NCBI GenBank assembly: GCA_964544265.1
Contig: CAZJBD010000003.1
Span: 1 to 62,935 of the forward strand
DNA length: 62,935 bases
From: an uncultured Eubacteriales bacterium
GTDB lineage: Bacteria; Acidobacteriota; Aminicenantia; Aminicenantales; Saccharicenantaceae
Reading direction: 5' to 3'
Under the pieces are notes generated by a model. The model saw only the letters and a list, made by a program, of their open reading frames with translations. It was not told the DNA's origin and did no database searches. Shown here piece after piece: positions 1 to 35,609 of the stretch (positions are counted from its first letter, which is position 1; every line of letters begins with the position of its first letter). A program made the translations under genes and the position numbers.

Positions 1-2962
1 GATAACGAGCGATGGATTCTCCCAGGATAGTAAGCTGGATGGAGAGAGAGTAGCCGCGAAGTGATTGTTCGAGAGATAATTGAGAGGCCAATATATCCCT
101 GGGGAGAATGTCTTTTTCGAGCTTGGCGAAGTTGGCAAAAAAATCATGCCAAGCTCGGCGCAAAAGGGTTGATTTTTCGGGTGGCGCTTTGATGATTTCG
201 GGCTGAAGCGCATCCAGATGCCTTCGGATATTCCTCACGGCGGTTACGGCCAAAGCCAATTTTTTAGAGACTTTAAGGAGTTGGCCAAGAAAGTCCTTTT
301 GGGCGGTCCATTGATCCTGGGGGAATTCGATACGCGGATCGGCGAGGACTTGCGCGGGACACGAGTAGACGGTCCCGCCTAAATTGATCTCCAGTGTATA
401 AACGCCAGGACGAACGCTCGGGAGCGAGGCGCCGATTCCCGAGGCCGGATATTTTTTTCCGTCTGCGGCCGCCGGCAGGAACTGAAAATTCCAGGTATCC
501 CTCTGGAGGCCGGCCTTCTGGTTGAGGTCGAATTCCGTTAGCGTCTCGCCCGCTCCCGCTCCGTCTTTGACCGCGATCCTCGTCTTTTCTTTGATGTCGA
601 TCTTGCTCCAGGTCGTGACCATGATCCCCAGCGGTGGATTTTTCCCCAGGAAGCCCGGCTTGCCGTAGAGTTCCCCCCTAACCGTGCTCCAGAAGAGGGT
701 CGCCGGCCTAGCTTTAAAAAGGTGGAAACTCGAGTTGAGGACCGTCTCGGACATCTCCTGGAGATACGAAACATCGTCCAGAATCCAGACTCCCCTGCCG
801 TGGGTTCCGATGATCAGGTCGTTTTCCCTTGGGTGGACGGCGATATCGTGGACGGCGACGGTCGGCAGGTTGTTTTTTAGAGTGAACCAGGTCGCTCCGC
901 CGTCCAGAGATGCAAAAACGCCGAATTCCGTGCCCGCGTAGAGGAGGTTCCTATTTTTGGGGTCCTCCCGGACGACATGTATCCAGCCGAAAGGCAGATT
1001 CCCTTTAATGGATTTCCATGATCTGCCGAAATCCATCGTTTTATAGAGGTAGGTTGCATAATCGTCCGTCCGGTGGCCGTCGAAAGCCGCGAAAGCGGTT
1101 CCCGGGTCGAAGTGCGAGGCTTCCACCCTGGAGCACCAGGTATGTTTGGGGAGACCCGGCACACCGGCGATGACGTTTGTCCAGCTCTTGCCGCCGTCCC
1201 GGCTCAGCTGGAGATTCCCATCGTCGGTTCCGCACCAGAGGGTCCCTTTATCCAACGGCGATTCGGCGATCGTTGTGATCGTGCAATGGACTTCGGCTCC
1301 GGAGATCTCGAAAGAAATCGGGCCTCTCGGATCCTTTTGTTTGGCCGGGTCGTTTGTGGTCAGGTCCGGGCTGATCGTTTCCCAGGAGTTCCCCTCGTCC
1401 GTTGTCCGGAAGAGAAAATTCCCGGCGCAATAGACCGTCTTTGGATCGTTGGGAGAAACCAGGACCGGAGAATTCCAGTTGAAGCGGTAAGGCGGTTCTT
1501 TCCAGGAAGCGGCCGGCCGAATGGACTTCGATCTGCCGATCCTCAGGTCGGTTCGGACGAGTCCGTTCATCTGCGAGTCGCTGTAGACCGTGTTCGGGTC
1601 GGAGGGGTCGGGTTTGACGAAAAATCCGTCTCCCCCGCCGACCGTCTCCCATTCTTCGTTGGCGATGCCCCGCGAGTCGAGAGAAGCGCTTGGGCCTCCC
1701 CAAGACCCGTTGTCCTGGAGGCCGCAATAAACATGATAGCGCGTCCTCATATCGAAGCCGACTTGGTAGACCTCGGCCAGGTCCAGGCTTTGGACCGCCT
1801 GCCAGGTTTTGCCGCCGTCGTAGGAGATATCGATCCCGCCGTCGTTTCCGTCGATGAGATGGAGGGAGTCGGACGGGTCGATCCAGAAACCATGGTGGTC
1901 GGGGTGGATCCCCGCCCCGATGGGCCTGAATTTTTCCCCCATGTCGTTCGAGACAAAAAGACCCGTGGAAAGAACATAAACCGTCTTATCGTCGTTGGGG
2001 TCCACGTGGATCTGGCTGTAGTAGAACGGGCGCGTATTGACCCGCTTGAACGTAGGCGTGTCGCACATCCTCTTCCAGCTTTCCCCGTAGTCCTCGGACC
2101 GCCAGATGCCTCCATCCTTGTGCTCGATCAGAGCATAAACGACGCCCGGCTTGCTCCGGGCGACTCCGATGCCGATCCGGCCCATGATCCCTTCGGGAAG
2201 GTCCTTTGAAAGCCGCCTCCAGGTCGCTCCGCTGTCATCGGATTTATAAAGGCCGCTTCCGGGCCCGCCGCCGGTGAATTCATAAGGCAGCCGTCTGTGC
2301 TCGTAGGCTGCCGCGTAAAGGACGAGAGAATTCCCGGGGTCCATGGAAATGTCCGCAAACCCAGTATTATCATTGACATAGAGAACTCTTGTCCACGATT
2401 TGCCGCCATCGAGGGTCCGGTAGATCCCTCGCTCGGGATTGGGTCCCCAGAGGTGTCCCATGGCGGCGACAAAAACGATGTTGGGGTCCCCCCTGTTGAT
2501 GAGGATCCGGCTGATATGCCGGGTTTCCTTGAGCCCCATATTTGTCCAGGTCTTGCCGGCGTCGACAGACTTGTAGACGCCATCGCCGATCGTGACGCTG
2601 TTCCGGCAGGTCGCTTCGCCGGTCCCTGCCCAGATGATGGAGGGATTGGATTGAGAGACGGCGATGTCGCCCACGGAGACTGTAGCTTCGTTGAAGAAAA
2701 CCGGAGTCCAGGTCGTTCCGTTGTTTTCGGACTTCCAGACCCCGCTCGGCCCTATGGCCGTATAGATTGTCGAAGGATGGCTCTCCACGACATCGATATC
2801 AACCGTCCGGCCGCCCATGACAGCCGGCCCGATCGCGCGCCATTGGAACTTGTCGAAAAGCCCCGCGACCTTGTCTGCGCTCTGGGCGCCAAGCTCCGCG
2901 GCTGCTGCGATCAGGACGAGCGCGATCGAAAACACAGCACAACACCTGGATTTGTTCTCCAT
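1..2962 (-). CDS. BNR/Asp-box repeat beta-propeller protein (sortilin/VPS10-like, GH74-like), secreted; C-terminus lies beyond the left edge
   Basis: Absent from the ORF track because there is no stop in the window. The minus-strand frame opened by ATG 2962..2960 (GAGGAGG upstream) stays open to position 1; I translated both ends and internal pieces by hand. N-terminus MENKSRCCAVFSIALVLIAAAAELGAQS is a signal peptide, followed by FQWRAIGPAVMGGR. Repeated SxDxGxTW Asp-boxes include YKSVDAGKTW (near 2548) and LSRDGGKSW (near 1190). The plus-strand ORFs 1073..2209 and 2297..3802 are antisense shadows. Confidence 0.8.
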   Translation of the reverse strand, partial: MENKSRCCAVFSIALVLIAAAAELGAQSADKVAGLFDKFQWRAIGPAVMGGRTVDIDVVESHPSTIYTAIGPSGVWKSENNGTTWTPVFFNEATVSVGDIAVSQSNPSIIWAGTGEATCRNSVTIGDGVYKSVDAGKTWTNMGLKETRHISRILINRGDPNIVFVAAMGHLWGPNPERGIYRTLDGGKSWTRVLYVNDNTGFADISMDPGNSLVLYAAAYEHRRLPYEFTGGGPGSGLYKSDDSGATWRRLSKDLPEGIMGRIGIGVARSKPGVVYALIEHKDGGIWRSEDYGESWKRMCDTPTFKRVNTRPFYYSQIHVDPNDDKTVYVLSTGLFVSNDMGEKFRPIGAGIHPDHHGFWIDPSDSLHLIDGNDGGIDISYDGGKTWQAVQSLDLAEVYQVGFDMRTRYHVYCGLQDNGSWGGPSASLDSRGIANEEWETVGGGDGFFVKPDPSDPNTVYSDSQMNGLVRTDLRIGRSKSIRPAASWKEPPYRFNWNSPVLVSPNDPKTVYCAGNFLFRTTDEGNSWETISPDLTTNDPAKQKDPRGPISFEISGAEVHCTITTIAESPLDKGTLWCGTDDGNLQLSRDGGKSWTNVIAGVPGLPKHTWCSRVEASHFDPGTAFAAFDGHRTDDYATYLYKTMDFGRSWKSIKGNLPFGWIHVVREDPKNRNLLYAGTEFGVFASLDGGATWFTLKNNLPTVAVHDIAVHPRENDLIIGTHGRGVWILDDVSYLQEMSETVLNSSFHLFKARPATLFWSTVRGELYGKPGFLGKNPPLGIMVTTWSKIDIKEKTRIAVKDGAGAGETLTEFDLNQKAGLQRDTWNFQFLPAAADGKKYPASGIGASLPSVRPGVYTLEINLGGTVYSCPAQVLADPRIEFPQDQWTAQKDFLGQLLKVSKKLALAVTAVRNIRRHLDALQPEIIKAPPEKSTLLRRAWHDFFANFAKLEKDILPRDILASQLSLEQSLRGYSLSIQLTILGESIARY

Positions 2963-2980
2963 GAGACCTCCTCGACTTCC

Positions 2981-4315
2981 TTACTCCCCGCCGATCTGCA
3001 TGAGCTTAATCCGAAAGGTCGGGGCCGTTATCGTCCGGTCAAGGTCGAGATCGTCGGCGACAAGGTCGATGCCGTTGAGCATCTCGTCGGCCGTCGAGGC
3101 GATCGTCAGCCCTTTGACGGGGAAAGCGACCTTGCCGTCCTCGATCCAAAAGCCCGAGGCGCCGCCGCTGAAGTTGCCGTTCACGGGATTGATGCCGTAG
3201 CCCGTGACCTCCTTCAGCCAAAGCCCGGTCTTGGTGGCCTTGATGATGTCCTCGGGTTTGGCCTGTCCGGCCGCCATATAGAAATTATGAGGCCCGATCC
3301 CGGGAAGGGAGGCAAATCCTTCCCGGGAGGCGTTCCCGGCGCTCTTCCTCCCGGCCCGCTTGGCGACGATCGTGTTGTACAGGAAACCTTTGAGAATGCC
3401 CATGTCGAGGATGATCCTTTTTTGGGTCGGAACGCCCTCCCCGTCGAACGGCTGGCTGCCCAACCCTTTTTCACGGGTGCCGTCGTCGACGAGCGTCACC
3501 AGCTCCGAGGCGATTCGCTGGTCCATCCTTTTGCCCAGGAAGCTCGCGCCCTGAAGCACGGACTCCCCGTCGATGGCCCCCAGGATTCCGCCCAGGAGGG
3601 CATAGGCCACGTCCCGATCGAATATCACGGCAGCCTTCTGGGTCTTTACCGGTCGGGGGTCGAGCATCGAATACGCATCGCGGGCCGCCTTGGCGGCGAC
3701 CTCCTCGGCCGGTTTGAGGTCGGTATAGAAGCGGCGGCCGCAACCTTCACCCCCCGACGACTTTTGCTCGCCCTTTTCGGCCACGACGGATACGAAGAAT
3801 GAACAGGCGGAGGATCTGGCGCTCTTCAACAGGCCGTGGGAATTGGCCAGGAAGACCTCCCCCTCCCCTTCTCCATAGCCGGAGCCCGCGCTCTTGGTGA
3901 TGCGGGGGTCCTGCATGGCGAGCTTTTCGACTTTCTTGGCCAGCTCGATCTTCGCGTCCATCGGTATTTTCGCGATGCTCTCGTCATAGAGCCCCCCGAC
4001 CTCGGTCATTCCTTTGTCTTCCGGAAGGACATTGTCGGGGTCGGCGGTCGAAATCCTGGCGAAATCGATGGCCCGGGAGATCGTGTCCTCGAAAGCTTTT
4101 TCGCTGAAGTCGTTACAGCTCGAGAACGCCATCCGGCCCTTGATGAAAACCCGGAAGCCGGCGCCGTAGGTCTCCGCCTCCTGGATGGTCTCGATCTCGC
4201 CGTTACGGACCTCAATGCTCAGGTTGCGGCCCGTCTCAAGATAGACCTCGGCCGCGTCGGCGCCCTTCTCGAGGCATTTCTTAACGAGTTGTTCGGAGAG
4301 TCCTTTGTAATCCAT
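2981..4315 (-). CDS. pmbA: TldE/PmbA family metalloprotease subunit, no signal peptide
   Basis: Internal ATG (M38 of the 481-aa ORF) preceded by GAGGAAAGGAAA. Product starts MDYKGLSEQLVKKCLEKGADAAEVYLE and shows full-length PmbA/TldE-type similarity. The 37-aa R-rich extension overlaps tldD and was rejected. Confidence 0.85.
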   Translation of the reverse strand: MDYKGLSEQLVKKCLEKGADAAEVYLETGRNLSIEVRNGEIETIQEAETYGAGFRVFIKGRMAFSSCNDFSEKAFEDTISRAIDFARISTADPDNVLPEDKGMTEVGGLYDESIAKIPMDAKIELAKKVEKLAMQDPRITKSAGSGYGEGEGEVFLANSHGLLKSARSSACSFFVSVVAEKGEQKSSGGEGCGRRFYTDLKPAEEVAAKAARDAYSMLDPRPVKTQKAAVIFDRDVAYALLGGILGAIDGESVLQGASFLGKRMDQRIASELVTLVDDGTREKGLGSQPFDGEGVPTQKRIILDMGILKGFLYNTIVAKRAGRKSAGNASREGFASLPGIGPHNFYMAAGQAKPEDIIKATKTGLWLKEVTGYGINPVNGNFSGGASGFWIEDGKVAFPVKGLTIASTADEMLNGIDLVADDLDLDRTITAPTFRIKLMQIGGE

Positions 4316-4332
4316 GATCGTTTCCTTTCCTC

Positions 4333-5865
4333 TCAGCCCCTGGCCCTCGTCCCGCCGACGTTGATGCCGCGAATCCGGACGGTCGGTTGGCCGGCATCGA
4401 CCTCGGCGGCCTGTCCCTTGCCGCATATTCCCGGGCCAAAGTCCAGATCGTCGCCGACGGCGTCGATGTTGGAAATGATGTCCAGGCAGCTTCCGATCAG
4501 GGTTGCTCCCTTGACCGGGGTCGTCTTTTTTCCGCCCTCGATGAGGTAAGCCTCCCGGCAGGAGAAGTTGAACACGCCGTCCGTCGGGTTGACGCTGCCG
4601 ACGCTCAGGCTCTGGACATAGATCCCGCTCGGGGTCGAGGTCAGGATGTCGGCGGGTTTACTTGTCCCTTTTTCGATGAACGTGTTCGTCATCCTGGGGA
4701 TCGGAATGTAGCGGAAGCTTTCCCGGCGGCCGTTTCCGGTCCGTTCCATCTCGAGTTGCTTGGCCGACAGGATATCGCTCATGAACGTCATCAGGATGCC
4801 GTCCTTGATGAGGACGTTGCGCTTCATCTGCGTCCCTTCGTCATCGAAGTCCGTCGTTCCTCGGGCGCAGGCGAGCGACCCGTCATCGACCATGGTGAAG
4901 ACCTCGCTGGCAACCTTCTTGCCCAGCTTGCCCACGAAAACACCCGTCTTGCGGGCGATGTTGTCGGCTTCGAGGGGATGTCCGACGGCTTCGTGGACCA
5001 GAACCCCGCCCCAGCCGTTCTGCATGACGACGTCCATCTTTCCAGCCGGCGCGTCCTTGGCCTCCAGCATGGCGACGGACTCCCGGGCGCAGGCCCTGGC
5101 CACGTCCTCGGGCCTGACCTCGTCAAAAAGCTCCAGGCCGGCGTGCCGGCTGAGCCGCTCGCGGCCCATGTGGGACGTGCCGTTGCCGACGCCCAACGCC
5201 TGGACGATGAAGAAGATTAATGGCAGTTCTTTATTGAGATAGAGGCCCTCGCTGTTGGCGATCGTCCGGCCCCGGACTTCGTCGTAATAGTTGACCGAAG
5301 CCATTTTGATCTTCGGGTCGTAAGCGAGGGCGGCGTCGTGGGCGCGCTTGATGATTTCCATGCGTTTCTCGTCGGCGACGCTGCCCAGCGGGATTTTCAC
5401 GCTGACAAAGGACGGCCGGTTCTCCTCCCGAATGTCGATCGGTTTCCGAGCTTTAGTCCCCCGGGCGATATAGGACGCGACCTCGGCCGCCCGGAAGAGC
5501 TTGTCCTCAGAGATTTCGTCTGAATACGCATACCCCGTCTTGTCTCCTGAGATGACTCGCACGCCGGCGCCTTGACTGATCCCGAAAACGGCATTCTTAA
5601 ACTTGGCTTCCTCCATCAGGATCGTCCGGGAGGTCCGATGCTCGACATAGACCTCGGCGAATTCCCCTCCCTGCTCTAGGGCTCTACGGATGACCTTATT
5701 GAGGACATCCGGCGCAAGCGCTGGCGCCTGCTGTTGGACCGGACCTCCGGCGAGGGCCCGGCCGAGAAGCGACGGCGCCGCTGCGATGGCGATCCCGCCT
5801 TTTAAGCCTAGTTCCAGAAACTTGCGTCGAGGCATGTCCTCGATGAAATAGCGTGGAAGAATCAT
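4333..5865 (-). CDS. tldD: TldD family metalloprotease with twin-arginine signal
   Basis: HEAVGH (HExxxH) motif and TldD-type sequence. Start chosen at M15 (ATG 5865, AAGGGGGAG upstream) because a TATAAT/TTGAAA promoter overlaps the longer ORF start. N-terminus MILPRYFIEDMPRRKFLELGLKGGIAIAAAPSLLGRALA has an RRxFL Tat motif, an h-region and an AxA site. Confidence 0.85.
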   Translation of the reverse strand: MILPRYFIEDMPRRKFLELGLKGGIAIAAAPSLLGRALAGGPVQQQAPALAPDVLNKVIRRALEQGGEFAEVYVEHRTSRTILMEEAKFKNAVFGISQGAGVRVISGDKTGYAYSDEISEDKLFRAAEVASYIARGTKARKPIDIREENRPSFVSVKIPLGSVADEKRMEIIKRAHDAALAYDPKIKMASVNYYDEVRGRTIANSEGLYLNKELPLIFFIVQALGVGNGTSHMGRERLSRHAGLELFDEVRPEDVARACARESVAMLEAKDAPAGKMDVVMQNGWGGVLVHEAVGHPLEADNIARKTGVFVGKLGKKVASEVFTMVDDGSLACARGTTDFDDEGTQMKRNVLIKDGILMTFMSDILSAKQLEMERTGNGRRESFRYIPIPRMTNTFIEKGTSKPADILTSTPSGIYVQSLSVGSVNPTDGVFNFSCREAYLIEGGKKTTPVKGATLIGSCLDIISNIDAVGDDLDFGPGICGKGQAAEVDAGQPTVRIRGINVGGTRARG

Positions 5866-5905: not shown

Positions 5906-5935
5906 ATTATATCGTATCGCGCGGTCGTTTTTCAA
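5906..5935 (-). promoter_or_regulatory. Candidate sigma70-type promoter for tldD-pmbA
   Basis: On the minus strand: TTGAAA (5935..5930), 18-nt spacer, TATAAT (5911..5906), about 40 nt upstream of ATG 5865. Confidence 0.35.
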
Positions 5936-6224
5936 AGCCCCCGCTCCGCCCAGAAGCACCTCTTTTCGTGTAAGAAAGAGTTGAGGCTCGGGGCGTGCCC
6001 TCTGTCGGCCGCGGCCTGCCCCGGCGAGCCAGGCCGCTTCGGCTCCGGTCTCCGCTCTCCTCTCCCTCCGGTCGAGGACCCGTGCCCGCTCCGACCTTCG
6101 ACTGCCTCCTCCGGGCATCGCCCCTGCGCCATTCTCTCTATCACGCCAAAAAAAGAAAAAATCGTTTCCCGTTCAGGCGCCGATTGTTTTACAATAGGGC
6201 CCGATAAAGTCGCCGGAAACTCTT

Positions 6225-8003
6225 ATGGCCAAGAAACACACGATCGAGGTCCTATCCCCTGCCGCGACGCTCAGGGCCGGGGACGGCAATCTTCTTGCGG
6301 ACGTCCTTGAATCCGCGGGGATCCCCCTCAGCCTTTACTGCGGCCGGAGGGGGGTTTGCGGCAAGTGCTTCGTGGAAATCGTCCGGGGAACGCTTCCGCC
6401 CCTCCGAGATGAGGAGGTCTCTCTCCTCGGTAAGAAAAACTTCTCTTTAAGGCATCGATTGGCGTGTCTCTACAAGGTGCACGGCGATCTCGCCGTGAGG
6501 ATTCCTGAAGGATCGCTTCTCAAGCAAGTGGCGGTTCTCGATACGGGCATTCCGGCGCCCATTTTTCCCGAACCCGCCGTAAGGAAGGTCGCCTTCGACC
6601 TCCCCTCCCCTACCCTCGCAACACCATTTTCACTCGTCGAAGCCCTGGAAAGGAGGTTGGCCAAGCGCCTTCGTGTTTCCATCCGCTCGGCCCGCCGGCT
6701 CTCCGAAATTTCAAAACAAAACGAGGGCCGCATTTCGGCCGTCATCCTTGACGATCAGGACCTCTTGGACGTCGAGTCCGGTGACACGGCGGATAAGTGC
6801 TACGGGGTCGCCGTGGACATCGGCACGAGCACCGTGGTCGTGGAGTTGGTCGACCTGGACTCCGGGAGGGGCCTCGACCGTTTGGCCGCGATGAACGCCC
6901 AGGTTCCGTTCGGCTCCGATGTCGTCTCCAGAATCACGTTCGCTTTCCAGGACCGCGCGAACCTGAAGCGCCTCGGTGACGTCGTCCGGGAGCAAATCGA
7001 TAGGATGATCCAGGATCTTTGCCGCGCCCGGAGGGTCGCCCCGGAACACATCTATGAGATCGTGGTCGCCGGGAACACCGCCATGAACCACATCTTTTTC
7101 GGCGTTCCGGTTTCGACGCTGGCCCTCTCACCGTTTTATGGGATCTATGCCTCCTCGCCTGAAGCTCGCGCGGCCGACCTTGGCCTCGGGGTCTGTCCCG
7201 CGGCCCGGGTCTATGCCGCGCCCAACATCGGGAGCTTCGTCGGCGGAGATATTTCGGCTGGGCTTGCGGCTGTTGGGCTGGAGAGCAAGGACGGCCATTT
7301 CCTATTCATCGACCTGGGAACGAACGGAGAGATCGTCCTGAAAAAGGGCCGCCGTTCTATGGCGACCTCGACGGCCGCGGGACCCGCCTTCGAGGGCATG
7401 ACCATCAGCTGCGGCATGCTGGCCCTGCCCGGGGCCATAGGAATTGCCAAATGGAAAGGGGGCGGCTTTACGGTCAAGACGATCGGCGAGGGACCCGCTC
7501 AGGGAGTATGCGGTTCGGGCCTTATCGACGTTCTCGCCCTTTCCCTCAGGAAAGGACTCGTCTCTCCGGACGGGAGGATCGCGGCCTCTTCTAAAACGAT
7601 CCCCATCATCGGAGAAATCGTTCTAACCCAGTCGGACGTCCGCAAAATGCAGCTGGCCGTAGCCGCCATCAAGAGCGGCGTCCTGATGATGCTCGACATG
7701 GCCAAGCTCGGGGTTTCCGATCTGGAAGGGATCTTCGTCGCGGGCGCGTTCGGTGCATCCCTCAACGTCCGGAACGCGATGACCGTGGGGCTTCTTCCCT
7801 CCATCCCCGAGGACAAGGTCGTTTTTGTCGGGAATTCCTCGCTTGCGGGGGCCAGGAAGCTCCTTCTTTCGGCGTTGGAGCGTCGGAGGATTGAATCCTA
7901 CGCGAGGACAATCAAGCACGTTTCGCTGGCTTCAGGCCGGGCCTTTCAAGACCGATTCATAGCGGCCCTGGAGCTCAAACCCTATTCAGGAGGAAGGGCA
8001 TGA
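6225..8003 (+). CDS. Reductive activator of corrinoid proteins (RACo-type): N-terminal 2Fe-2S ferredoxin plus ASKHA ATPase
   Basis: Cys motif CGRRGVCGKC...C. ASKHA phosphate loops VAVDIGTSTVVV and FIDLGTNGEIV. 592 aa, typical for the corrinoid activation/regeneration family. The stop overlaps the next start (ATGA at 8000..8003). Confidence 0.8.
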   Translation: MAKKHTIEVLSPAATLRAGDGNLLADVLESAGIPLSLYCGRRGVCGKCFVEIVRGTLPPLRDEEVSLLGKKNFSLRHRLACLYKVHGDLAVRIPEGSLLKQVAVLDTGIPAPIFPEPAVRKVAFDLPSPTLATPFSLVEALERRLAKRLRVSIRSARRLSEISKQNEGRISAVILDDQDLLDVESGDTADKCYGVAVDIGTSTVVVELVDLDSGRGLDRLAAMNAQVPFGSDVVSRITFAFQDRANLKRLGDVVREQIDRMIQDLCRARRVAPEHIYEIVVAGNTAMNHIFFGVPVSTLALSPFYGIYASSPEARAADLGLGVCPAARVYAAPNIGSFVGGDISAGLAAVGLESKDGHFLFIDLGTNGEIVLKKGRRSMATSTAAGPAFEGMTISCGMLALPGAIGIAKWKGGGFTVKTIGEGPAQGVCGSGLIDVLALSLRKGLVSPDGRIAASSKTIPIIGEIVLTQSDVRKMQLAVAAIKSGVLMMLDMAKLGVSDLEGIFVAGAFGASLNVRNAMTVGLLPSIPEDKVVFVGNSSLAGARKLLLSALERRRIESYARTIKHVSLASGRAFQDRFIAALELKPYSGGRA

Positions 8004-8884
8004 AACAGACGATTCTCGATCTCATTAAAAAACGGACGGTCCTTTTCGACGGCGGCCTGGGGACCGAACTCATGCGGCACGGCCTCCCGCTGGGGACCTC
8101 GCCGGAGACATGGAACGCCGAGCGGCCCGACATCGTTCAAAAAATCCACGCTGGCTACTTCGAGGCGGGATCGGATGTCGTTTCGACGAACAGCTTCGGC
8201 GGGAACCGAATCAAGCTGGCCGCCCATGGCCTGGAAGGGCGCGTCCGCGAGCTTAACTCGGCCGCGGCCCGCATCGCCCGCCGGGCGGCTCCGGCTGGGA
8301 AGTTTGTTGCCGGAAGCATGGGCCCCACGGGCAAGTTTCTCCAACCCCAAGGGGAATATACCGAGCTGGAGTTCGAAGAAACCTACAGCGAGCAGGCTGC
8401 TGCCCTGATCGAGGGCGGAGTCGACCTTCTGATTATCGAAACGCAATACGACCTTAAGGAAGCCCTGGCGGCCCTGAGGGGCGCCAAGCGCGCAGCGCCA
8501 TCCCTGCCCATTTTCGTCACCATGACCTTCAACAAACTCCCCCGCGGCTATTTTACCCTGATGGGGAACACGGTCTCTCTCAGCGCCGAGCTGCTGGAAA
8601 AAGGAGGGGCGCGGGCCGTGGGCGCCAATTGCACCCTCAACAGCGAGGACATGGTCGGGCTGGTCCGGGCCTTACGAGAGGCGACGAAGCTTCCAGTCAT
8701 CGCTCAGGCCAACGCCGGGAAGCCGGAGCTTTCGGGCAAGGGGGAGGTTTCTTATTCGCAGGGACTGGAAGATTACGTCCGGTTCGTCCCGGATATCATC
8801 AAGGCAGGTGCGAATATCATCGGCGGTTGCTGCGGAACCGACCCCGGGTATATCCGGAAAATGGCAGAATTCATTAAAAAATAG
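8000..8884 (+). CDS. Stand-alone homocysteine S-methyltransferase domain protein (MetH Hcy-barrel-like, Zn-dependent thiol methyltransferase)
   Basis: LFDGGLGTEL N-terminal motif, GANCT and GGCCGT Zn-ligand cysteine motifs, AGGAGG upstream, 294 aa. Confidence 0.8.
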   Translation: MKQTILDLIKKRTVLFDGGLGTELMRHGLPLGTSPETWNAERPDIVQKIHAGYFEAGSDVVSTNSFGGNRIKLAAHGLEGRVRELNSAAARIARRAAPAGKFVAGSMGPTGKFLQPQGEYTELEFEETYSEQAAALIEGGVDLLIIETQYDLKEALAALRGAKRAAPSLPIFVTMTFNKLPRGYFTLMGNTVSLSAELLEKGGARAVGANCTLNSEDMVGLVRALREATKLPVIAQANAGKPELSGKGEVSYSQGLEDYVRFVPDIIKAGANIIGGCCGTDPGYIRKMAEFIKK

Positions 8885-8909
8885 ACATTATCATCGAAAG
8901 GAGGAAAAA

Positions 8910-9560
8910 ATGGTCCGGGAAGAGCTATTCAGCAACATCAAGAAGGCCATCGTGGAAGGAGACAAACCGCGGGCCCAGGAGCTGGCCAGACAAGCCATCC
9001 GCTCAGGAGTCGACCTCAACGAGGTTATTGACAAAGGGTACGTGCCGGGGATCCAGGCCGTTGGGGAGCTGTGGGAAAAAGGGGACTATTTCCTGCCTGA
9101 ACTCATTACCAGCGCCGAATGTATGAAGGCAGCCATGGACATCCTGCAGCCGGAGATGGCCAAAGCGAACATCAAATCCAGGTCTTTGGGAAAGGTCGTG
9201 ATCGGGACGGTCGAAGGCGACATCCACGACATCGGCAAGAATCTGGTGGCCTCGATGCTCCAGGCCAACGGCTTCGAGGTCTTTGACCTCGGCGCCGACG
9301 TCAAGCTGGAGAGGTTCATCGAGAAGGCCGAGACCGAAAAGGCGGACCTCATCTGCCTCTCGGCCCTGTTGACAACGACCATGCTCAACCAGAAGCGGCT
9401 CATCGAAATGCTCAGGCAAAAAGGCTTCTACGGGAAATACAAGGTTCTTGTGGGAGGCGCGCCGGCTACCCGGAAGTGGGCCGAGGACATCGGGGCCCAT
9501 GGATATGCCGAGAACGCTGCCCTAGCGGTGAAGGCGGCCAAGGCCGCAACGGCCAAGTGA
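8910..9560 (+). CDS. Corrinoid (cobalamin)-binding protein, MtgC/MtqC/MetH Cob-domain-like
   Basis: Internal ATG 8910 preceded by AAAGGAGGA. Has the B12-binding cap helix region, then GDIHDIGKN (DxHxxG), SALLTT (SxL) and LVGGAP (GG). Confidence 0.85.
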   Translation: MVREELFSNIKKAIVEGDKPRAQELARQAIRSGVDLNEVIDKGYVPGIQAVGELWEKGDYFLPELITSAECMKAAMDILQPEMAKANIKSRSLGKVVIGTVEGDIHDIGKNLVASMLQANGFEVFDLGADVKLERFIEKAETEKADLICLSALLTTTMLNQKRLIEMLRQKGFYGKYKVLVGGAPATRKWAEDIGAHGYAENAALAVKAAKAATAK

Positions 9561-9576
9561 GCGAGGAGAAAATATC

Positions 9577-11046
9577 ATGATCCAGACCAGAAGACCCAAA
9601 GTCGAGCTCCTGAGCGCGGAGTTTATTGAGAAAATCGTCGACGAGGCCTGCCTCCTCCTGGAAAAACAGGGCATCTTTGTTGAGAACCACGAGGCCTTGG
9701 AGCTGCTGGCGGCGGCTGGGATGAAGGTCGACCGCTTGACCCAAAGGGTTCACTTGACTCGGCGGCTGGTCGAGTCCTGCCTCTCTAAGACGCCCTCGGT
9801 CATCAAGCTATATGACCGTTCTGGCTTAAAAGAATATGTCGTAGGCGGGGACGAGATCCACTTCGATCCGGGTTCGGCGGCCGTCTCCATACTGGACCAT
9901 AAGACGAATGCCGACCGCAAAGCCGACACCGGCGATTTGATCCGTCTCTACCGCCTCGTCGAGACCTTGGAAAACATCGACCTCCAGAGCACGGCCCTCA
10001 TCAGCGCCGACGTTCCCCACGCGATCGCGGACGCCTACCGTCTCTATCTGGGGCTTCTCTATTCGGCGAGGCCCTTCATAACGGGAACATTCCGGGTCGA
10101 AGGCTTCGCGGTTATGCGCGACATGCTGACGGCCGTCCGGGGAAGCTCCGACGAGCTTCGGAAAAAGCCGCTGGCCGTTTTCGATGCCTGCCCCTCCCCT
10201 CCCCTCAAGTGGAGTAACCTCACCGCTCAAAGCCTGATCGACGCGGCCCGGGCCGGCCAGCCGAGCGAGCTCATCTCCATGGGCCTTACGGGCGCCACCT
10301 CGCTCGTGACTCTTGCCGGCACGCTCGTCCAGCACGTGGCCGAGAACCTCTGCGGCATGGTCATCTGCCAGCTGGCCAAGCCGGGGGCTCCGGTCATCTT
10401 TGGCGGCTCGCCAGCCAGCTTTGATATGCGGAAGGGCACGACACCCATGGGGGCCATGGAAACGATGATGATCGATTCGGCCTATGCCCAAATCGCCAAG
10501 CGCCTCGGCATGCCGACCCACACTTATATGGGAATGAGCGACTCCAAGATCAACGATTCCCAGGCCGGGCTGGAAACGGGCATGGGCGCGGTCCTCGCGG
10601 CTCTATCGGGAATCAACGTCATCTCCGGACCCGGGATGCTTAATTTCGAAAGCACCCAGAGCCTGGAGAAGCTGGTCATCGACGATGAGATCTGCGGGAT
10701 GGCCCGCCGTCTCGTTCGCGGCATTGAACAAAGGGACGAGATCCTGGCTCTGGACAAATTCGAAGAGCTAACCGCGGGGGCGCAATTCCTTTCTCTGGCC
10801 CATACACGGAAGTGGTACAGGAAAGAACACCGCTTTCCCAAGATCATAGACAGGGATACGTATGAAGCCTGGGTTTTACTCGGACAAAAGTCTATGGAAG
10901 TCAGGGCCGCCGAAGAAGTCGAAAAAAGGTTGGCCGCGCCGGCAGGGGCACCCTTGGAAGCGAACAAGGCCGGCGAGCTCCGGAAGATCATGATGGGATA
11001 CGCCAAAGTCATGGGCGTCTCTTCACTCCCGGAGTCCGGGATTTGA
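9577..11046 (+). CDS. MttB-superfamily methyltransferase, non-pyrrolysine member (substrate:corrinoid methyltransferase, substrate unknown)
   Basis: Uninterrupted 489-aa ORF with trimethylamine-methyltransferase-family similarity along its whole length and GAGGAG upstream. No in-frame TAG. Confidence 0.85.
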   Translation: MIQTRRPKVELLSAEFIEKIVDEACLLLEKQGIFVENHEALELLAAAGMKVDRLTQRVHLTRRLVESCLSKTPSVIKLYDRSGLKEYVVGGDEIHFDPGSAAVSILDHKTNADRKADTGDLIRLYRLVETLENIDLQSTALISADVPHAIADAYRLYLGLLYSARPFITGTFRVEGFAVMRDMLTAVRGSSDELRKKPLAVFDACPSPPLKWSNLTAQSLIDAARAGQPSELISMGLTGATSLVTLAGTLVQHVAENLCGMVICQLAKPGAPVIFGGSPASFDMRKGTTPMGAMETMMIDSAYAQIAKRLGMPTHTYMGMSDSKINDSQAGLETGMGAVLAALSGINVISGPGMLNFESTQSLEKLVIDDEICGMARRLVRGIEQRDEILALDKFEELTAGAQFLSLAHTRKWYRKEHRFPKIIDRDTYEAWVLLGQKSMEVRAAEEVEKRLAAPAGAPLEANKAGELRKIMMGYAKVMGVSSLPESGI

Positions 11047-11663
11047 CGAGCGGCGATATGCCCCGGATGATGGGGGGCCCTCCTCAGATCGCGATCGCCT
11101 TCGAGGAACGAAGGATTCTCATCCGGCTGGGCTATCGAAAACCCGCCGGCGACATCGACCGGGGCATCAGGCTCATCGTCCATGAGGAGACCGAGAACGC
11201 AATAAGGCTCGTCCGGCCGCAGGTCTTAGCGGCCATCCTCGACTCCTCCGAGCTTCCTGACCACCCTATTTTCCGGAATGCCGAAATGGCGGCGCTTTGC
11301 CTTTGCACGATAGGTCCGGAACTTGAAGGGACCGTGGCCAGGTTGATGTCCGGGGGGGACATGCTCAGGGGCCTTATTCTCGACTGGCTGGGATCAGAGG
11401 CGGTGACCAGTGTTTCAAAACAGGCCGAGGCCTGGCTGAAGGAAGAAGGGGCATCCCTGGGATTTTGGCCGAGCAAGAGGTTTGCGCCTGGCTACAAAGG
11501 CTGGGATGTCTCCGGCCAGAAGCTCATTTTTTCCGTGCTCCCGGCCGCCAAGATAGGCGTTCGGCTCACGGAGTCCTTCATGATGGTCCCCAGGAAATCC
11601 TATTCTTTCCGGATCAACTATTTCAAAGACCAGGCGTTGGCGACCATGCGAAGGCCGGCCTGA
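11043..11663 (+). CDS. MetH activation-domain-like protein (vitamin B12-dependent methionine synthase activation region) as a separate polypeptide
   Basis: Family-like sequence (FAPGYKGWDVSGQKLIF, MMVPRKSYSF). TTG 11043 overlaps the mttB-like stop (TTGA), with GGAG 8 nt upstream. The alternative ATG at 11058 lacks a well-spaced SD. Confidence 0.7.
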   Translation: MTSGDMPRMMGGPPQIAIAFEERRILIRLGYRKPAGDIDRGIRLIVHEETENAIRLVRPQVLAAILDSSELPDHPIFRNAEMAALCLCTIGPELEGTVARLMSGGDMLRGLILDWLGSEAVTSVSKQAEAWLKEEGASLGFWPSKRFAPGYKGWDVSGQKLIFSVLPAAKIGVRLTESFMMVPRKSYSFRINYFKDQALATMRRPA

Positions 11664-11691: not shown

Positions 11692-13092
11692 TCATGGGAG
11701 CTCAAATTCTTGCAGGTATTCCGGGACCTCGACATGCCAGCCCCGGTCCCGGCCGATCTCCGTTCCAAGCTTGAGGGAGATGTCTTTTTCGCCATGGGTT
11801 AGAAAGAGCGTATGAGGAGGCGATTCCAAGCCGTCGAGCCAGCGGGACAGCGCCTTCCGGTCGGCGTGGGCGGAAAATCCCAGGATCTTCTCGATGCGGG
11901 CCGCGACCGGCAGTTCTTGCCCGAGGATGCGGACGCGGCGGTTGCCCTCAAGGATTTGGCGGCCAAGAGTGTCTTTTGCCTGGAAACCAACGAAGAGGAT
12001 CGTTGACTCTGGCCTGGAGATGTTCCTGAGGAGGTGCTGCTTGATCCGCCCTCCCGTGCACATCCCCGAACCGGCCATGATGATACAAGAACCCTTGATC
12101 GCATTGATCGCCTTGGACTCGTCGATGGTCCGGATGAATTCGAGGCCCGGGAATTCAAAGGGCTTGTTGCCCTCACGAAAAAGCCCCAGGGTTTCTTCGT
12201 CCAGGCACTCGGGGTGGCGTTCAAAGACGTCCGTCACGTCTACGGCCATCGGGCTGTCGAGGAAGATGAGGATCGGAGGAAAGCATTTCTCGCGGCGAAG
12301 CCGGCCGAAGTGAAACATCAGCTCCTGAGCCCGCTCGATGGCGAAGGTGGGGATGATGACGTTGCCCCCGGCTCCGACCGCTCGGCCGGTAATGTTGCAG
12401 AGGAGCTTCTCTACGTCCTTCATGTCTTCGTGGTCATGGTCGCCATAAGTCGTTTCCATGACCACATAATCCACCCGTTTGAACACGGACGGGTCGCGGA
12501 TGATCGGCTTGTCCCATTGACCAATGTCTCCCGAAAAAACAATGGTCCTCTCTTGGCCGTTCTCCCGGGCCCGGACTTCGATCATGGACGAGCCCAGGAT
12601 GTGCCCGGCGTCATGGAAGGTAACCGAAACGCGATCATTGAGGGCCGCCGGCGCGTTGTATCCGATTTCCTCGACCAGGGGCAAGGCCCGCTGGGCATCC
12701 TCAGTCGTGTAAAGGGGAATCTCTTCGTAAGGCCCCCGGCGGCCTTCCTTTTCATGGCGCTTCTTCTTGAAGGCCGCGTCTTCCTCCTGGATCTTGGCGG
12801 AATCCAAAAGGACGATCGGCAGGAGGTCGGCCGTGGCGGGAGTCGTCAGGATCGCCCCCGCGAATCCTTGCCGGACGAGCCTGGGGATGAGGCCGCAGTG
12901 GTCGAGATGGGCATGGGTCAGAAGCAGGATGTCTATTTGATCCGGCGGGATCGGAAAGGGATTCCAATTCCTTTCCAAGAAGGAGCGTTCCTGGTAGAGG
13001 CCGCAGTCCACAAGTATGCTCAATCCACCGGCTGCCAGGGTGTAACAGGACCCCGTCACCTGTTGGGCCGCGCCGAGAAAACGGAGTTTCAT
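11692..13092 (-). CDS. MBL-fold beta-CASP ribonuclease (RNase J/CPSF-like)
   Basis: LTHAHLDHCG (HxHxDH), DCG and later beta-CASP motifs, 466 aa. The start overlaps the upstream stop by 1 nt. Confidence 0.85.
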   Translation of the reverse strand: MKLRFLGAAQQVTGSCYTLAAGGLSILVDCGLYQERSFLERNWNPFPIPPDQIDILLLTHAHLDHCGLIPRLVRQGFAGAILTTPATADLLPIVLLDSAKIQEEDAAFKKKRHEKEGRRGPYEEIPLYTTEDAQRALPLVEEIGYNAPAALNDRVSVTFHDAGHILGSSMIEVRARENGQERTIVFSGDIGQWDKPIIRDPSVFKRVDYVVMETTYGDHDHEDMKDVEKLLCNITGRAVGAGGNVIIPTFAIERAQELMFHFGRLRREKCFPPILIFLDSPMAVDVTDVFERHPECLDEETLGLFREGNKPFEFPGLEFIRTIDESKAINAIKGSCIIMAGSGMCTGGRIKQHLLRNISRPESTILFVGFQAKDTLGRQILEGNRRVRILGQELPVAARIEKILGFSAHADRKALSRWLDGLESPPHTLFLTHGEKDISLKLGTEIGRDRGWHVEVPEYLQEFELP

Positions 13093-13955
13093 CAGGGTTG
13101 GAATATCCTGTAAAGGTCGAGTTCCGTGGCGAAGAAAAGGATCTTGCTCGAGATCCGGGCCAATATATAGGCTTGGGCCAAGATGAATCCGAGCCCGAAG
13201 GCGACGATCCCCGTTCCCGGCAGGGCGTTCGTTACTCCGATGAAGACGGCGGTTACAGCGATGAACAGGAGGCCGACGAAGAGGTAAAGCCCCCAGGCCC
13301 TGAAAAACCTTCTCCCGACGAAGGACAGCGCAGCAGCAGCCGCCCGGAGGACTTTGCGGCCGTTCCGGGCCACGAGGTCAATCTTGATGTAATCGAAATA
13401 CATCTGAACGAGGGATAAGAGAAGAATGGTTATCAGGAATCTGAGATTGGACGCGACGATGACCGGCATTTCTCCCGCCGCGTTCTTGGCCCACAATTTG
13501 AAGGGGGCCGAGACGAGCCTAACCAGTCCGCCGAAGACCAGGACATAGACGGGAATGGAGAGCAGGAAGACCCTGAAAAACCGGCCGAAATACTTCCCGC
13601 AGTCGGCGAAGAATCCCTGAAGGGTCGTTTTTTCGCCACCTGCCAGGCGACCGATAATCCCTCCATTAAGAAAAATGGAGAGAAGGATGAAGATGAGCGC
13701 CGGGACCAGCAGCCAGCCCGCTAGGGCGGGAAGGAGGTTATGGTATCTATAGATACTATCTCCCAGCCAGATAAAATTCAGCCTTCCCAGGCCTTCGCCC
13801 GCCGGAGAGTGGCCGAAATCCTTGTTGATCAAAAAATAGACCGGCGCCGCTACGATGATTCCGAAGACAAAGTCGATAATCCAGAGCCAGAGGATCATTC
13901 CGGGGTTTCTGCGGACAGCGGATACGCCATTGCTGATGATCTTGAGATGACCCAT
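13092..13955 (-). CDS. Polytopic membrane protein, unknown function
   Basis: 287 aa with about 6 hydrophobic segments. GAAGGAGGA upstream of ATG 13955. No family recognised. Confidence 0.6.
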   Translation of the reverse strand: MGHLKIISNGVSAVRRNPGMILWLWIIDFVFGIIVAAPVYFLINKDFGHSPAGEGLGRLNFIWLGDSIYRYHNLLPALAGWLLVPALIFILLSIFLNGGIIGRLAGGEKTTLQGFFADCGKYFGRFFRVFLLSIPVYVLVFGGLVRLVSAPFKLWAKNAAGEMPVIVASNLRFLITILLLSLVQMYFDYIKIDLVARNGRKVLRAAAAALSFVGRRFFRAWGLYLFVGLLFIAVTAVFIGVTNALPGTGIVAFGLGFILAQAYILARISSKILFFATELDLYRIFQP

Positions 13956-16158: not shown

Positions 16159-16617
16159 TCAGCGAGTCCTCTCGACCCAGGCCTCCCAGCTAGAGAGGCG
16201 CGGGAAGTACATGAAGACGAGGACCAGGGAGACGGCGAGGAGGGCGTAGAAATCCTTATTCAGTCCGCCGATGAGAAAGAGGACGAGACCCAGGATTGCT
16301 GGAACCTCGCTGAGGCAGACCGTGAGGATGGAGGCCCGAAAGAGCTTCTGGACGGTCATCTTGACCGTGTCTCCGGGCGCGCGTTTGAGGAGGAGCGATT
16401 GGGCGAGCCGGATGATGAGGACCTCGAGGACGGCGAGGCCGTAGCAGACGTAGCGGAAGGTCGACATCTCCGGAAGAGGGGCAAAACCCCGGAAGGGCTT
16501 AAGCTGGGACCGCAGGACCTCGACGATGACAAGATAGACGAGAAGGCTGGCGATGACCGTTACACCGATCAGAGAAGCGGTTTTGAGGGTCCTCTTTAAT
16601 TCCTCGCGGTTCTCCAT
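16159..16617 (-). CDS. Small membrane protein, unknown function
   Basis: 152 aa with 4 predicted TM segments and GGAGGA upstream. Confidence 0.55.
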   Translation of the reverse strand: MENREELKRTLKTASLIGVTVIASLLVYLVIVEVLRSQLKPFRGFAPLPEMSTFRYVCYGLAVLEVLIIRLAQSLLLKRAPGDTVKMTVQKLFRASILTVCLSEVPAILGLVLFLIGGLNKDFYALLAVSLVLVFMYFPRLSSWEAWVERTR

Positions 16618-19680: not shown

Positions 19681-19711
19681 TTAACTTTAGAGAGCGTCTT
19701 TGTGCTACAAT
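19681..19711 (+). promoter_or_regulatory. Candidate promoter giving a leaderless or near-leaderless glgA mRNA
   Basis: TACAAT at 19706..19711 lies only 6 nt before ATG 19718, with a TTAACT-like -35 at 19681..19686. There is no SD before the ATG. Confidence 0.3.
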
Positions 19712-19717
19712 CGCCGC

Positions 19718-21166: not shown

Positions 21167-21276
21167 CGTCCGACAGGGTCGGCCCGTGTCCCTCATCCAG
21201 TAGTATTGAAAATTGACGGGTGAACCCCTTCATGGGGCGTTGATTTCGACCTCACTCTCGGAGTCGGTGCCGTCTC

Positions 21277-22647: not shown

Positions 22648-22721
22648 CACGTCTTTCCTCCTCTCCTTACATAGATGGATTCGACCTATCCATCCGTAGA
22701 ATCCGAGTGCGGTCAGAAGCC

Positions 22722-23747: not shown

Positions 23748-24101
23748 CTAAGGTTTCACCAGTTCGCGAACCTTGGCCTTGAGCTCGGCGAGGGAGGAGG
23801 ACTTGACGACATAAGCGTCAGCGGCCCAGGTCATGAAGTCCTCCTTGTAGCTCTGATAAGCGGTATTGATGATGATCGGGATGTCCTTCCTCAAGCCCAT
23901 GATTTGAGCGATGAGCTCGACACCGTTCTTCCCCGGCATGCGGATGTCGGTGATGATCAGATCGAAAGTCTTGTTTTTGATGGCATCCAGGGCCGAATCG
24001 GCATCGTGAACGGACGTCACTTCATAGCCTTCTGCAGACAGCTCTTCTTCGTAGAGGAGACAGAGCGGCTGCTCGTCTTCCACGAGGAGTATCTTTTTCA
24101 T
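23748..24101 (-). CDS. Single-domain response regulator (CheY-like receiver only)
   Basis: MKKILLVEDE, LIITDIRMPG (phospho-Asp), INTAY, YVVKS. AAAGGAGG upstream. ATGA overlap with the kinase stop. Confidence 0.85.
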   Translation of the reverse strand: MKKILLVEDEQPLCLLYEEELSAEGYEVTSVHDADSALDAIKNKTFDLIITDIRMPGKNGVELIAQIMGLRKDIPIIINTAYQSYKEDFMTWAADAYVVKSSSLAELKAKVRELVKP

Positions 24102-34656: not shown

Positions 34657-34662
34657 GAGTCC

Positions 34663-35397: not shown

Positions 35398-35609
35398 CGA
35401 TCTGCCTTCCTGTTCAGGCCTTATTGATAGCATACGGCCGGGGCCAAGTCAAAAAACCGGCCGGGCCGCCGAAATTGCAAGTATGAGGCGGGTCGGAATT
35501 CCGGGACATGAACCAATCCTCTGGAATTGGTATCGTGTCCCTGGAATTCTGGAGGACCTTGAGAGGGTCGTCCGTTTATGCTAATATTAAAATTTAAAAA
35601 AGAGGTTTC

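Follow-up and report, generated by a model that had tools for sequence, protein, structure and literature searches.

A five-gene corrinoid methyltransferase operon of the Aminicenantes with homocysteine as its probable methyl acceptor

The window analyzed here is a stretch of 62,935 nucleotides from an uncultured member of the Aminicenantes (GenBank assembly GCA_964544265.1, contig CAZJBD010000003.1, positions 1 to 62,935, the whole contig). It contains an operon of five genes, which encode a reductive activator of the RACo type, a stand-alone homocysteine (Hcy) methyltransferase barrel (HcyMT), a small corrinoid protein (CoP), a methyltransferase of the MttB superfamily (MT1, the predicted substrate:corrinoid methyltransferase), and a homologue of the reactivation domain of methionine synthase (Act) (Table 1). 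The last four genes share a single strand and all fall inside 3.7 kb. The RACo and HcyMT genes overlap by 4 nt (ATGA), the corrinoid gene is preceded by a 25-nt gap with a strong AGGAGG ribosome-binding site, and a further 16 nt precede the MttB gene. The original prediction, which was made by reading the DNA letters and a list of open reading frames (ORFs), described these five same-strand ORFs correctly, except that the 4-nt overlap given for the final junction holds only if Act starts at TTG 11043. The other possible start, ATG 11058, leaves an 11-nt gap and yields a 201-aa product, and it is the start called for the Act orthologue in the related locus L083. The operon is flanked by divergent PmbA and TldD genes upstream and by a convergent beta-CASP nuclease gene downstream. 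No Rfam family was found at its gathering score in the whole window or at E<=1 between 5850 and 6300, so riboswitches for S-adenosylmethionine (SAM or AdoMet), cobalamin and other known ligands are absent upstream of the operon. A SAM or B12 riboswitch, considered as a clue to function, was likewise missing from 12 related loci searched with Rfam. Overall, the five-gene feature is genuine and well conserved and makes functional sense, and the arrangement is not due to chance because it recurs in dozens of genomes.

Table 1. Genes of the operon and the region upstream of it, with the evidence for each assignment.
Feature	Position	Strand	Evidence
Intergenic region of 317 nt, common to the operon and the divergent TldD gene; presumed promoter region	5908..6224	+	
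RACo-type reductive activator (N-terminal 2Fe-2S ferredoxin domain and ASKHA ATPase), 592 aa	6225..8003	+	Pfam, NCBIfam, position in relatives
HcyMT, stand-alone MetH-type homocysteine-binding Zn barrel (predicted MT2, methyl-corrinoid:homocysteine methyltransferase), 294 aa	8000..8884	+	Pfam, PDB comparison, motifs
CoP, corrinoid (B12-binding) protein of the methylamine/MtgC type, 216 aa	8910..9560	+	Pfam, NCBIfam, motifs
Non-pyrrolysine MttB-superfamily methyltransferase (predicted MT1, substrate:corrinoid), 489 aa	9577..11046	+	Pfam, alignment, clade
Act, TM0269-like stand-alone MetH reactivation domain protein (predicted AdoMet-binding), 201-206 aa	11043..11663	+	Pfam, profile, AlphaFold/Foldseek, motif

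The family identities proposed in the original prediction were confirmed for all five proteins by Pfam and NCBIfam and, for Act, by profile and fold comparison; the Zn-ligand motifs of the barrel and the cobalamin-binding motifs of the corrinoid protein are intact, as it had stated. HcyMT matches the S-methyl_trans family of Pfam (PF02574) with an E value of 1.7e-71 (241.9 bits). Its top match in the PDB is the Hcy module of MetH from Thermotoga maritima (1Q7M, 170 bits), while a protein of the MmuM type (5DML) reaches 74 bits and BHMT 68 bits. The protein possesses a DGGLGT motif (residues 17-22), E147, C211 within GANC, and C277/C278 within GGCCG, and all three Zn-ligand cysteines are therefore kept. 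As judged from the profile, the Zn cysteines and the nearest structures, HcyMT is a MetH-type Hcy module, predicted to bind homocysteine. In NCBIfam it stays below the cut-offs of the equivalog models for known Hcy methyltransferases, with sub-threshold scores of 215 bits for the BHMT model and 128 bits for the homocysteine S-methyltransferase model. Stand-alone orthologues form more than 120 clusters in the protein database. In a reverse look-up of three HcyMT homologues, chosen only for their long contigs, all three proved to sit in the same gene cluster.

The corrinoid protein has a different affiliation. CoP contains the B12-binding_2 and B12-binding domains of Pfam and exceeds the cut-off of the NCBIfam model for methyltransferase cognate corrinoid proteins (TIGR02370; 236.6 bits, cut-off 215.3), and it scores 227 bits against the MtgC model and 150.7 bits against that of MetH. 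The residues D104xH106xxG109, S151xL153 and G182G183, which constitute the motifs of base-off/His-on cobalamin binding, are invariant in 56 orthologues. On the evidence of these model scores, CoP is of the methylamine/MtgC type and not of the MetH type.

Membership of MT1 in the MttB superfamily is well supported, the match to MTTB (PF06253) extending over residues 2-470 (4.7e-88, 295.8 bits, cut-off 25). In contrast, its score of 388.7 against the model for the pyrrolysine (Pyl)-dependent trimethylamine methyltransferase MttB (TIGR02369) lies below the cut-off of 525. The protein is equidistant from the MttB of Methanosarcina barkeri (7XCL, 217 bits), the MtgB of Desulfitobacterium hafniense (2QNE, 214 bits) and 9YCE (213 bits). 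Methionine occupies the position of Pyl334 of M. barkeri MttB and serine that of its partner Tyr364, and the ORF is uninterrupted. No stop codon occurs at the Pyl column in any of 84 clade members. Apparent candidates for a hidden pyrrolysine, in-frame stops in L026 and L060, correspond to a frameshifted stretch and the natural C-terminus rather than to the Pyl column. An Rfam match to PYLIS_3 in L052 (8945-9042, + strand; 43.4 bits, gathering score 38) was set aside as probable coding-sequence homology; the MttB homologue there has leucine at the Pyl position.

For comparison of the cluster among relatives, 80 species-level genome loci were used, the best 80 of 156 matches and mostly from Aminicenantes, on which the five window proteins were mapped by tblastn; 62 of these loci have enough upstream sequence to be informative. 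Locus ORFs were called by a simple longest-ORF procedure, and the taxon labels of metagenome-assembled genomes (MAGs) are as deposited, some being clearly generic. The MT1 clade spans 48-92% identity across the 80 loci, and relatives at 67-97% identity form more than 120 clusters in the protein database. The nearest genome locus to the window is L001, with an MttB identity of 92%, and an exact-sequence look-up of the window MttB protein returned no second contig. A rough neighbor-joining (NJ) tree, computed without support values, places all cluster MttBs in one clade that includes neither M. barkeri MttB nor D. hafniense MtgB. Within this tree the MttBs linked to HcyMT are spread across at least four subclades, including deep branches outside the Aminicenantes.

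Two proteins of the operon would serve in reactivation. In the product of the first gene, the Fer2, RACo_linker, Raco_middle and RACo_C_ter domains of Pfam all exceed their cut-offs, which identifies it as an activator of the RACo type. Its score against the AcsV model of NCBIfam is 385 bits, below the cut-off of 800, so this protein is not the AcsV of acetyl-CoA synthase (ACS) clusters itself. RACo orthologues of 44-82% identity occur in the same position in 40 of the 62 informative loci. The assignment of Act is the weakest of the five by Pfam, with a marginal match to Met_synt_B12 over residues 144-188 (27.3 bits, cut-off 25). A profile built from 11 Act orthologues matches a single PDB entry, 1J6R, which is TM0269 of T. 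maritima (E=4.5e-11). An AlphaFold model of Act (37 homologues, pLDDT 93) aligns with 1J6R in Foldseek with a TM score of 0.72-0.74 and also matches 18 chains of MetH reactivation domains at E<=4e-4, including those of Thermus thermophilus, Escherichia coli and human. The motif RFAPGY (R146-FAPGY151) is present. Act thus has the homology, fold and RxxxGY motif of a TM0269-type reactivation protein, and AdoMet binding is predicted for it. The MetH of T. maritima, TM0268, is reportedly served by TM0269 as a separate reactivation protein.

The part of methionine synthase that binds methyl-tetrahydrofolate (methyl-THF) has no counterpart in the operon. The original prediction had already remarked on the missing pterin module, and this observation extends to the window and to the clusters of relatives. 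Among the ~48 ORFs of the window, Pfam detected no Pterin_bind, MetH, MetE, MetF, Meth_synt_1 or Meth_synt_2 protein, and all pieces of the operon fall far below the cut-off of 1010.85 for MetH (TIGR02082). Pterin_bind (PF00809) was likewise found beside none of ~86 related clusters in a Pfam annotation that covered the recurrent and type D neighbors and part of the singleton neighbors. The original prediction would have been undermined if relatives always carried a pterin methyltransferase in the cluster, and this was not seen. The four modules of E. coli MetH were also compared by tblastn with the window and 1.2 Mb of related loci. The pterin module gave a best E value of 0.04 and no match in the window, although tblastn is weak for distant proteins of the MtgA/AcsE type; the Hcy and cobalamin-binding (Cob) modules were matched as expected. 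DUF1638 is also absent from the 63-kb window and from the surroundings of the related clusters. HcyMT is the only MT2-type gene found adjoining this MttB clade.

The conservation of the neighborhood, suggested as a check in the original prediction, turned out to be strong for one part of the operon and partial for another. The CoP gene lies directly upstream of the MttB gene in 47 of the 62 informative loci, and the MttB gene stands alone in the remaining 15. The Hcy barrel is present in 23 loci, in every case alongside the CoP gene, and is missing from the other 24 CoP-linked loci. Act stays with the CoP-MttB pair even in loci that do not have HcyMT. The constant core thus consists of CoP and MttB, joined by Act, RACo or both, to which the Hcy barrel is added repeatedly, though not always, as an acceptor module.

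Several arrangements of these genes recur. The window belongs to the type in which the order RACo-HcyMT-CoP-MttB(-Act) is followed by the convergent beta-CASP gene (type A), and L083 is collinear with it, including the PmbA/TldD genes and Act. In a variant, the same set is preceded by an amino-acid permease of the APC/LAT type (L081, L084, L085, eight genome loci). In type B, HcyMT-CoP-MttB follows genes for ACS/carbon monoxide dehydrogenase (CODH), the corrinoid iron-sulfur protein (CFeSP) and AcsV, as it does in six Aminicenantes loci. In type C, a permease-RACo-CoP-MttB(-Act) set has no Hcy gene. Type D consists of an isolated CoP-HcyMT-Act-MttB module among unrelated genes (EF-G, ABC transporters) in five loci labeled as lying outside the Aminicenantes, namely Phycisphaerales, Myxococcales, Thermoanaerobaculia and two unclassified MAGs. 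In addition, a radical SAM gene precedes CoP-Act-MttB in L087 (5109-9087), where RACo and HcyMT are missing. Long ORFs in L070 and L078 were considered as possible Act-MttB fusions and discarded because the Act-like match is in another reading frame than MttB.

Loci L005, L009, L011 and L013, which belong to one Aminicenantes subclade, have upstream genes for CdhC, CooC, two CFeSP subunits of the CdhD type and an AcsV-like RACo (e.g., L011 59-13598). After the cluster they carry a second MttB paralogue, in which the Pyl position holds alanine; it resembles M. barkeri MttB more closely, and its TIGR02369 score is 447 bits. L009 and L011 have, in addition, genes for a HisC-like aminotransferase and for an APC permease. 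These ACS/CODH-adjacent loci with a second MttB possibly point to a connection with the Wood-Ljungdahl pathway, or to the use of a second substrate. The aminotransferase neighbors (a HisC-like enzyme in L009 and L011, a different one of class I/II in L017 and L021) are too few and chemically too ambiguous, and they were not used as a clue to the substrate.

The APC permease is linked to the cluster in 20 genome loci, including one of another phylum, and also in L081 (5183-6607), L084 (3802-5163) and L085 (237-1691). In many relatives it is the first gene; in L052, from another lineage, it comes after the cluster. It is absent from the window. The linked permease may import the methyl donor, and it hints, weakly, at an amino-acid-like compound, since its matches to general amino-acid transporter models are all sub-threshold.

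Taken together, the operon probably encodes a complete multi-component corrinoid methyltransferase system with homocysteine as the acceptor, a reading to which we give somewhat better than even credence. From the gene content, motifs, folds and conserved linkage we infer, in the following scheme, which way the methyl group moves, what accepts it, what kind of compound donates it and how RACo and Act take part in repair. In the initial step, the non-Pyl MttB enzyme would move one methyl group from an N-methylated compound onto the Co(I) of CoP. A quaternary amine or an amino-acid betaine is the probable donor, imported by the APC/LAT-type permease that accompanies the cluster in relatives; a quaternary amine is favored because characterized non-Pyl members use glycine betaine, proline betaine, carnitine, gamma-butyrobetaine and phosphocholine. 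The Zn barrel would then activate homocysteine as a thiolate, which would take the methyl group from CH3-Co(III) to give methionine and Co(I), with no involvement of folate. Two ways of repairing cobalt that has been oxidized to Co(II) are proposed, acting singly or together: RACo would reduce it at the expense of ATP, using its 2Fe-2S cluster, and the TM0269-like protein would remethylate it reductively with SAM, as happens in T. maritima MetH. Passage from amine to cobalt to sulfur is the favorable direction when the donor is a quaternary ammonium compound and the acceptor a Zn-thiolate, as in the chemistry of MetH and of MtgB, MtpB, MtcB and MtyB.

The linkage of the Hcy barrel, CoP and MttB, the rearranged gene order outside the Aminicenantes and the reverse look-ups together indicate a functional link, of which the proposed wiring is the best explanation. 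The central claim of the original prediction, that MttB loads the corrinoid protein and the Hcy barrel unloads it, is thus backed by synteny that is rearranged across phyla, and stands as a prediction from sequence. Its description of the system as a split MetH holds for the Hcy barrel and Act, which are MetH-like, but not for CoP, and Act also travels without the Hcy gene. With an equidistant MT1 and an activase of the RACo type, the system appears instead to be a mosaic of MetH-derived and methylotrophy-derived parts and not a MetH that has fallen apart.

A number of observations weigh against homocysteine methylation by this route. The literature contains, as far as could be found for any organism, no biochemical or genetic test of the path from MttB through a corrinoid to homocysteine. 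The absence of the Hcy gene in cis from about half of the CoP-linked loci means that the MttB-CoP pair does not strictly depend on a nearby Hcy gene and could have other acceptors. The tyrosine of RxxxGY has given way to threonine or serine in the two Act orthologues that are nearest, L003 and L025. A pterin partner may be encoded elsewhere in the genome, the search having covered the 63-kb contig. Finally, mtgE is down-regulated on glycine betaine (GBT) in Roseobacter, where most of the methyl groups that the MttB-family enzyme delivers reach THF via an MtgD encoded elsewhere (Mausz et al., 2025; PMC12478193; bioRxiv 10.64898/2025.12.19.695462).

This last observation leads to the alternative that deserves most attention, that CoP is a shared hub as in the MtgBCDE system of Roseobacter. 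The main flux from MttB would then run to THF through a distant pterin enzyme, the barrel would normally receive its methyl group from methyl-THF through the same enzyme in reverse, and the operon would amount to a split MetH combined with a demethylase, with no bypass of folate. Such wiring is documented genetically in Ruegeria, in which mtgC and mtgD mutants are methionine auxotrophs unable to use GBT (Mausz et al., 2025; PMC12478193). The 24 CoP-linked loci without an MT2 gene in cis indicate that acceptor enzymes can be encoded at a distance, and the six Aminicenantes loci in which the cluster directly follows the ACS/CODH and CFeSP genes of the Wood-Ljungdahl pathway also fit. In contrast, a pterin-binding gene adjoins none of the ~86 clusters, whereas proteobacterial mtgD co-localizes with mtgBC and mtgE usually does not, and in the five non-Aminicenantes loci CoP-HcyMT-Act-MttB is isolated among unrelated genes. 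Moreover, a methylated hub protein would still be a substrate of the Hcy barrel, which leaves the direct route possible. We consider the hub arrangement unlikely, yet sufficiently plausible to be kept firmly in mind.

The remaining alternatives concern the barrel itself. Its acceptor could be another thiol, for example a small mercapto-acid or sulfide, which would make the operon a methyl sink for catabolic demethylation instead of a methionine synthase. Corrinoid systems can reportedly methylate non-native thiols after the MT2 is swapped. The organism, moreover, looks like a fermenter of peptides and carbohydrates that would need such a sink, and HcyMT does not reach the equivalog cut-offs mentioned above. 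To our knowledge, however, the characterized members of PF02574 all use homocysteine or selenohomocysteine, and HcyMT, whose closest structures are MetH Hcy modules, keeps the DGGxGT motif and the glutamate of the ET motif that are conserved in those modules, so that we regard a different thiol as improbable. The sub-threshold matches to the BHMT and homocysteine S-methyltransferase models could also be taken to mean that the barrel is a corrinoid-independent methyltransferase, using S-methylmethionine, SAM or betaine, that merely happens to reside in the operon. This is a very improbable reading given the much higher score against the MetH module than against MmuM-type proteins and BHMT, and the proteobacterial family behind the "BHMT" model has itself been reinterpreted as the corrinoid-dependent MtgE (PMC12478193). 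A passenger gene would also not be expected to show the strict linkage of Hcy and CoP (23 of 23), which outlasts the rearrangement of gene order across phyla. Corrinoid methyl transfers are reversible in principle, and this is the sole point in favor of a flow in the opposite direction, in which the barrel would demethylate methionine or another thioether or sulfonium compound and the MttB homologue would N-methylate an amine for osmolyte synthesis. Thermodynamics and, as far as we know, all characterized enzymes of the MttB family and PF02574 point the other way, and the linked permease suggests import of a substrate; reverse flow is hardly to be expected.

If homocysteine is indeed the acceptor, environmental methylated amines would be a direct source of methionine, and hence of SAM, and neither methylene-THF reductase nor methyl-THF would be needed. 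Osmolyte and methylamine turnover, B12 demand and sulfur amino-acid synthesis would then be linked in abundant uncultured sediment bacteria. A substrate would be defined for a large, conserved and uncharacterized MttB clade, and biocatalysis would gain a natural thiol-methylating system that works with unactivated donors. The current labels of these genes, "trimethylamine methyltransferase" and "5-methyltetrahydrofolate-homocysteine methyltransferase", are both probably wrong. More speculatively, and with rather less than even confidence, it may be proposed that the MttB clade uses a donor new to the superfamily, with an N-methyl compound that resembles an amino acid and enters through the permease as a plausible candidate. 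With CoP and the barrel it would then constitute a folate-independent, B12-dependent methionine synthase that is widespread in the Aminicenantes, scattered in at least five other lineages and maybe the sole methionine synthase in some of them.

The rest of the window holds genes that Pfam assigns to peptidases, glycogen metabolism and GH57 enzymes, and housekeeping functions, and it contains no tRNAs or tandem repeats. The PmbA/TldD pair is divergent from the operon, as in L083, and the long ORF at 2297-3802 (+), which has no Pfam match and overlaps the PmbA gene (2981-4426, - strand; 233 bits), is probably spurious. Downstream, the beta-CASP metallo-beta-lactamase nuclease gene (11692-13092, -) is a conserved convergent neighbor of the operon in 18 Aminicenantes loci. 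Its best NCBIfam match is "type VII CRISPR-associated Cas14" (400.9 bits, cut-off 800), and a CRISPR-like repeat array is absent from the window. Hypothetical proteins of 287 and 152 aa (13092-13955 and 16159-16617, both -) have no Pfam or NCBIfam match and occur in the same positions in L081, L083 and L084. A glycogen/alpha-glucan block (19700-31531) comprises a GT5 of the starch-synthase type, a GalT-like transferase, a response regulator and histidine kinase, a GlgC-like nucleotidyl transferase and three GH57 proteins, including a branching enzyme and a 4-alpha-glucanotransferase. A stand-alone LigD 3'-phosphoesterase of 154 aa (33098-33562, -) has no ligase or polymerase domain nearby. An AICAR formyltransferase protein without a fused IMP cyclohydrolase (33577-35433, -) adjoins an IMP cyclohydrolase of the archaeal type (PF07826), giving a split, non-canonical PurH. 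Finally, an 824-aa protein (37947-40421, -) combines a class I SAM methyltransferase domain with several ankyrin repeats and PD40 beta-propeller repeats.

Parts of the system resemble well-known corrinoid pathways. The methanogen pathway from trimethylamine to coenzyme M (CoM), which consists of MttB/MttC, MtbA and RamA, has the same logic of an MT1, a corrinoid protein, a thiol-methylating Zn MT2 and an ATP-dependent activase, and CoP reaches the cut-off of the same NCBIfam model. It differs in its Pyl-dependent MttB, in the use of a CoM methylase of the URO-D family as MT2, and in its activase, RamA having a C-terminal 4Fe-4S cluster as opposed to the N-terminal 2Fe-2S cluster of the RACo type. 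The MtgABC system of D. hafniense and the MtpB, MtcB, MtyB and MthB systems of Eubacterium limosum likewise combine a non-Pyl MT1 with a corrinoid protein of the MtgC type and an ATP-dependent activase. In these, however, the MT2 is the pterin-binding MtgA or MtqA, which methylates THF, whereas in the window it is the Hcy barrel. Compared with MtgB and MttB sequences, the window MT1 is no nearer to D. hafniense MtgB (~214 bits) than to Pyl-MttB.

A further parallel is MtgBCDE of Ruegeria pomeroyi, Phaeobacter inhibens, in which MetH is split into three parts, and Sinorhizobium meliloti. Genetic evidence shows a single corrinoid protein in the service of two partners, a GBT demethylase of the MttB family and a separate homocysteine module, with the pterin-binding MtgD taking part in every case (Mausz et al., 2025; PMC12478193; bioRxiv 10.64898/2025.12.19.695462). 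Both systems possess an MT1 (MtgB), a small corrinoid protein (MtgC) and a separate PF02574 protein (MtgE) arranged around a shared cofactor protein, with an activase like RamA or RACo. In the proteobacterial system, MtgD is essential, the methyl group of methionine is thought to come from methyl-THF, and those of GBT go to THF. In addition, mtgE is usually apart from mtgBCD, repair proceeds via DUF1638 rather than a TM0269-like protein, and the hosts are aerobic Proteobacteria. The window has its Hcy gene in cis and no pterin gene close by, and its CoP matches the methylamine-type model TIGR02370. With neither PF00809 nor DUF1638 present, the full MtgBCDE set is not found within its 63 kb. 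With TM0268 and TM0269 of T. maritima the similarity is of another kind, since the Hcy barrel is nearest to the TM0268 module, the last gene is a TM0269 homologue and the reactivation domain is separate in both. TM0268, however, has fused Hcy, pterin and B12 modules and uses methyl-THF, whereas in the window all modules are separate and an MttB-family enzyme replaces the pterin module.

Direct methylation of homocysteine from a methyl-corrinoid protein is a concept shared with the folate-independent "core" methionine synthases MesA, MesB and MesC, fed by corrinoid proteins in anaerobes (Price et al., 2021; PMC7857596). All three belong to the MetE-type barrels of the Meth_synt_2 family with MtrA or the CFeSP of central C1 pathways as predicted donors, and none of MesA-D was found in the window. 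If confirmed, the operon would be a MetH-type counterpart to MesA-C and the first MetH-type system shown to bypass methyl-THF.

The original prediction held that the route had not been described, and in this it was mistaken. Williams et al. reported a four-gene cluster in MAGs of Ca. Electryoneota and "diverse bacteria" and proposed, as a hypothesis without experiments, corrinoid-dependent methionine synthesis from an unknown methyl donor, placing the MttB homologue outside MtgB and MttB, in an uncharacterized clade (Williams et al., 2022; Environ Microbiol 24:2576, PMC9324843). A corrinoid protein shared with an Hcy module has, as noted, since been demonstrated genetically (PMC12478193). The same four gene families are adjacent in the window and the same function is proposed for them, a comparison made at the level of gene families and not of sequence identity with the Electryoneota clade; the type D loci fit the published description. 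The window differs in having RACo as its first gene, another gene order and an Aminicenantes host. The gene set and the idea were thus published in 2022, and Williams et al. arrived at the hypothesis independently, so the value of the present system lies in experimental testing and in comparative detail. What is added here is an Aminicenantes lineage with a RACo gene, the breadth and variants of the cluster, the linkage to a permease, the place of Act in the CoP/MttB core, the mosaic origin of the system and the lack of pterin genes in cis across ~86 loci.

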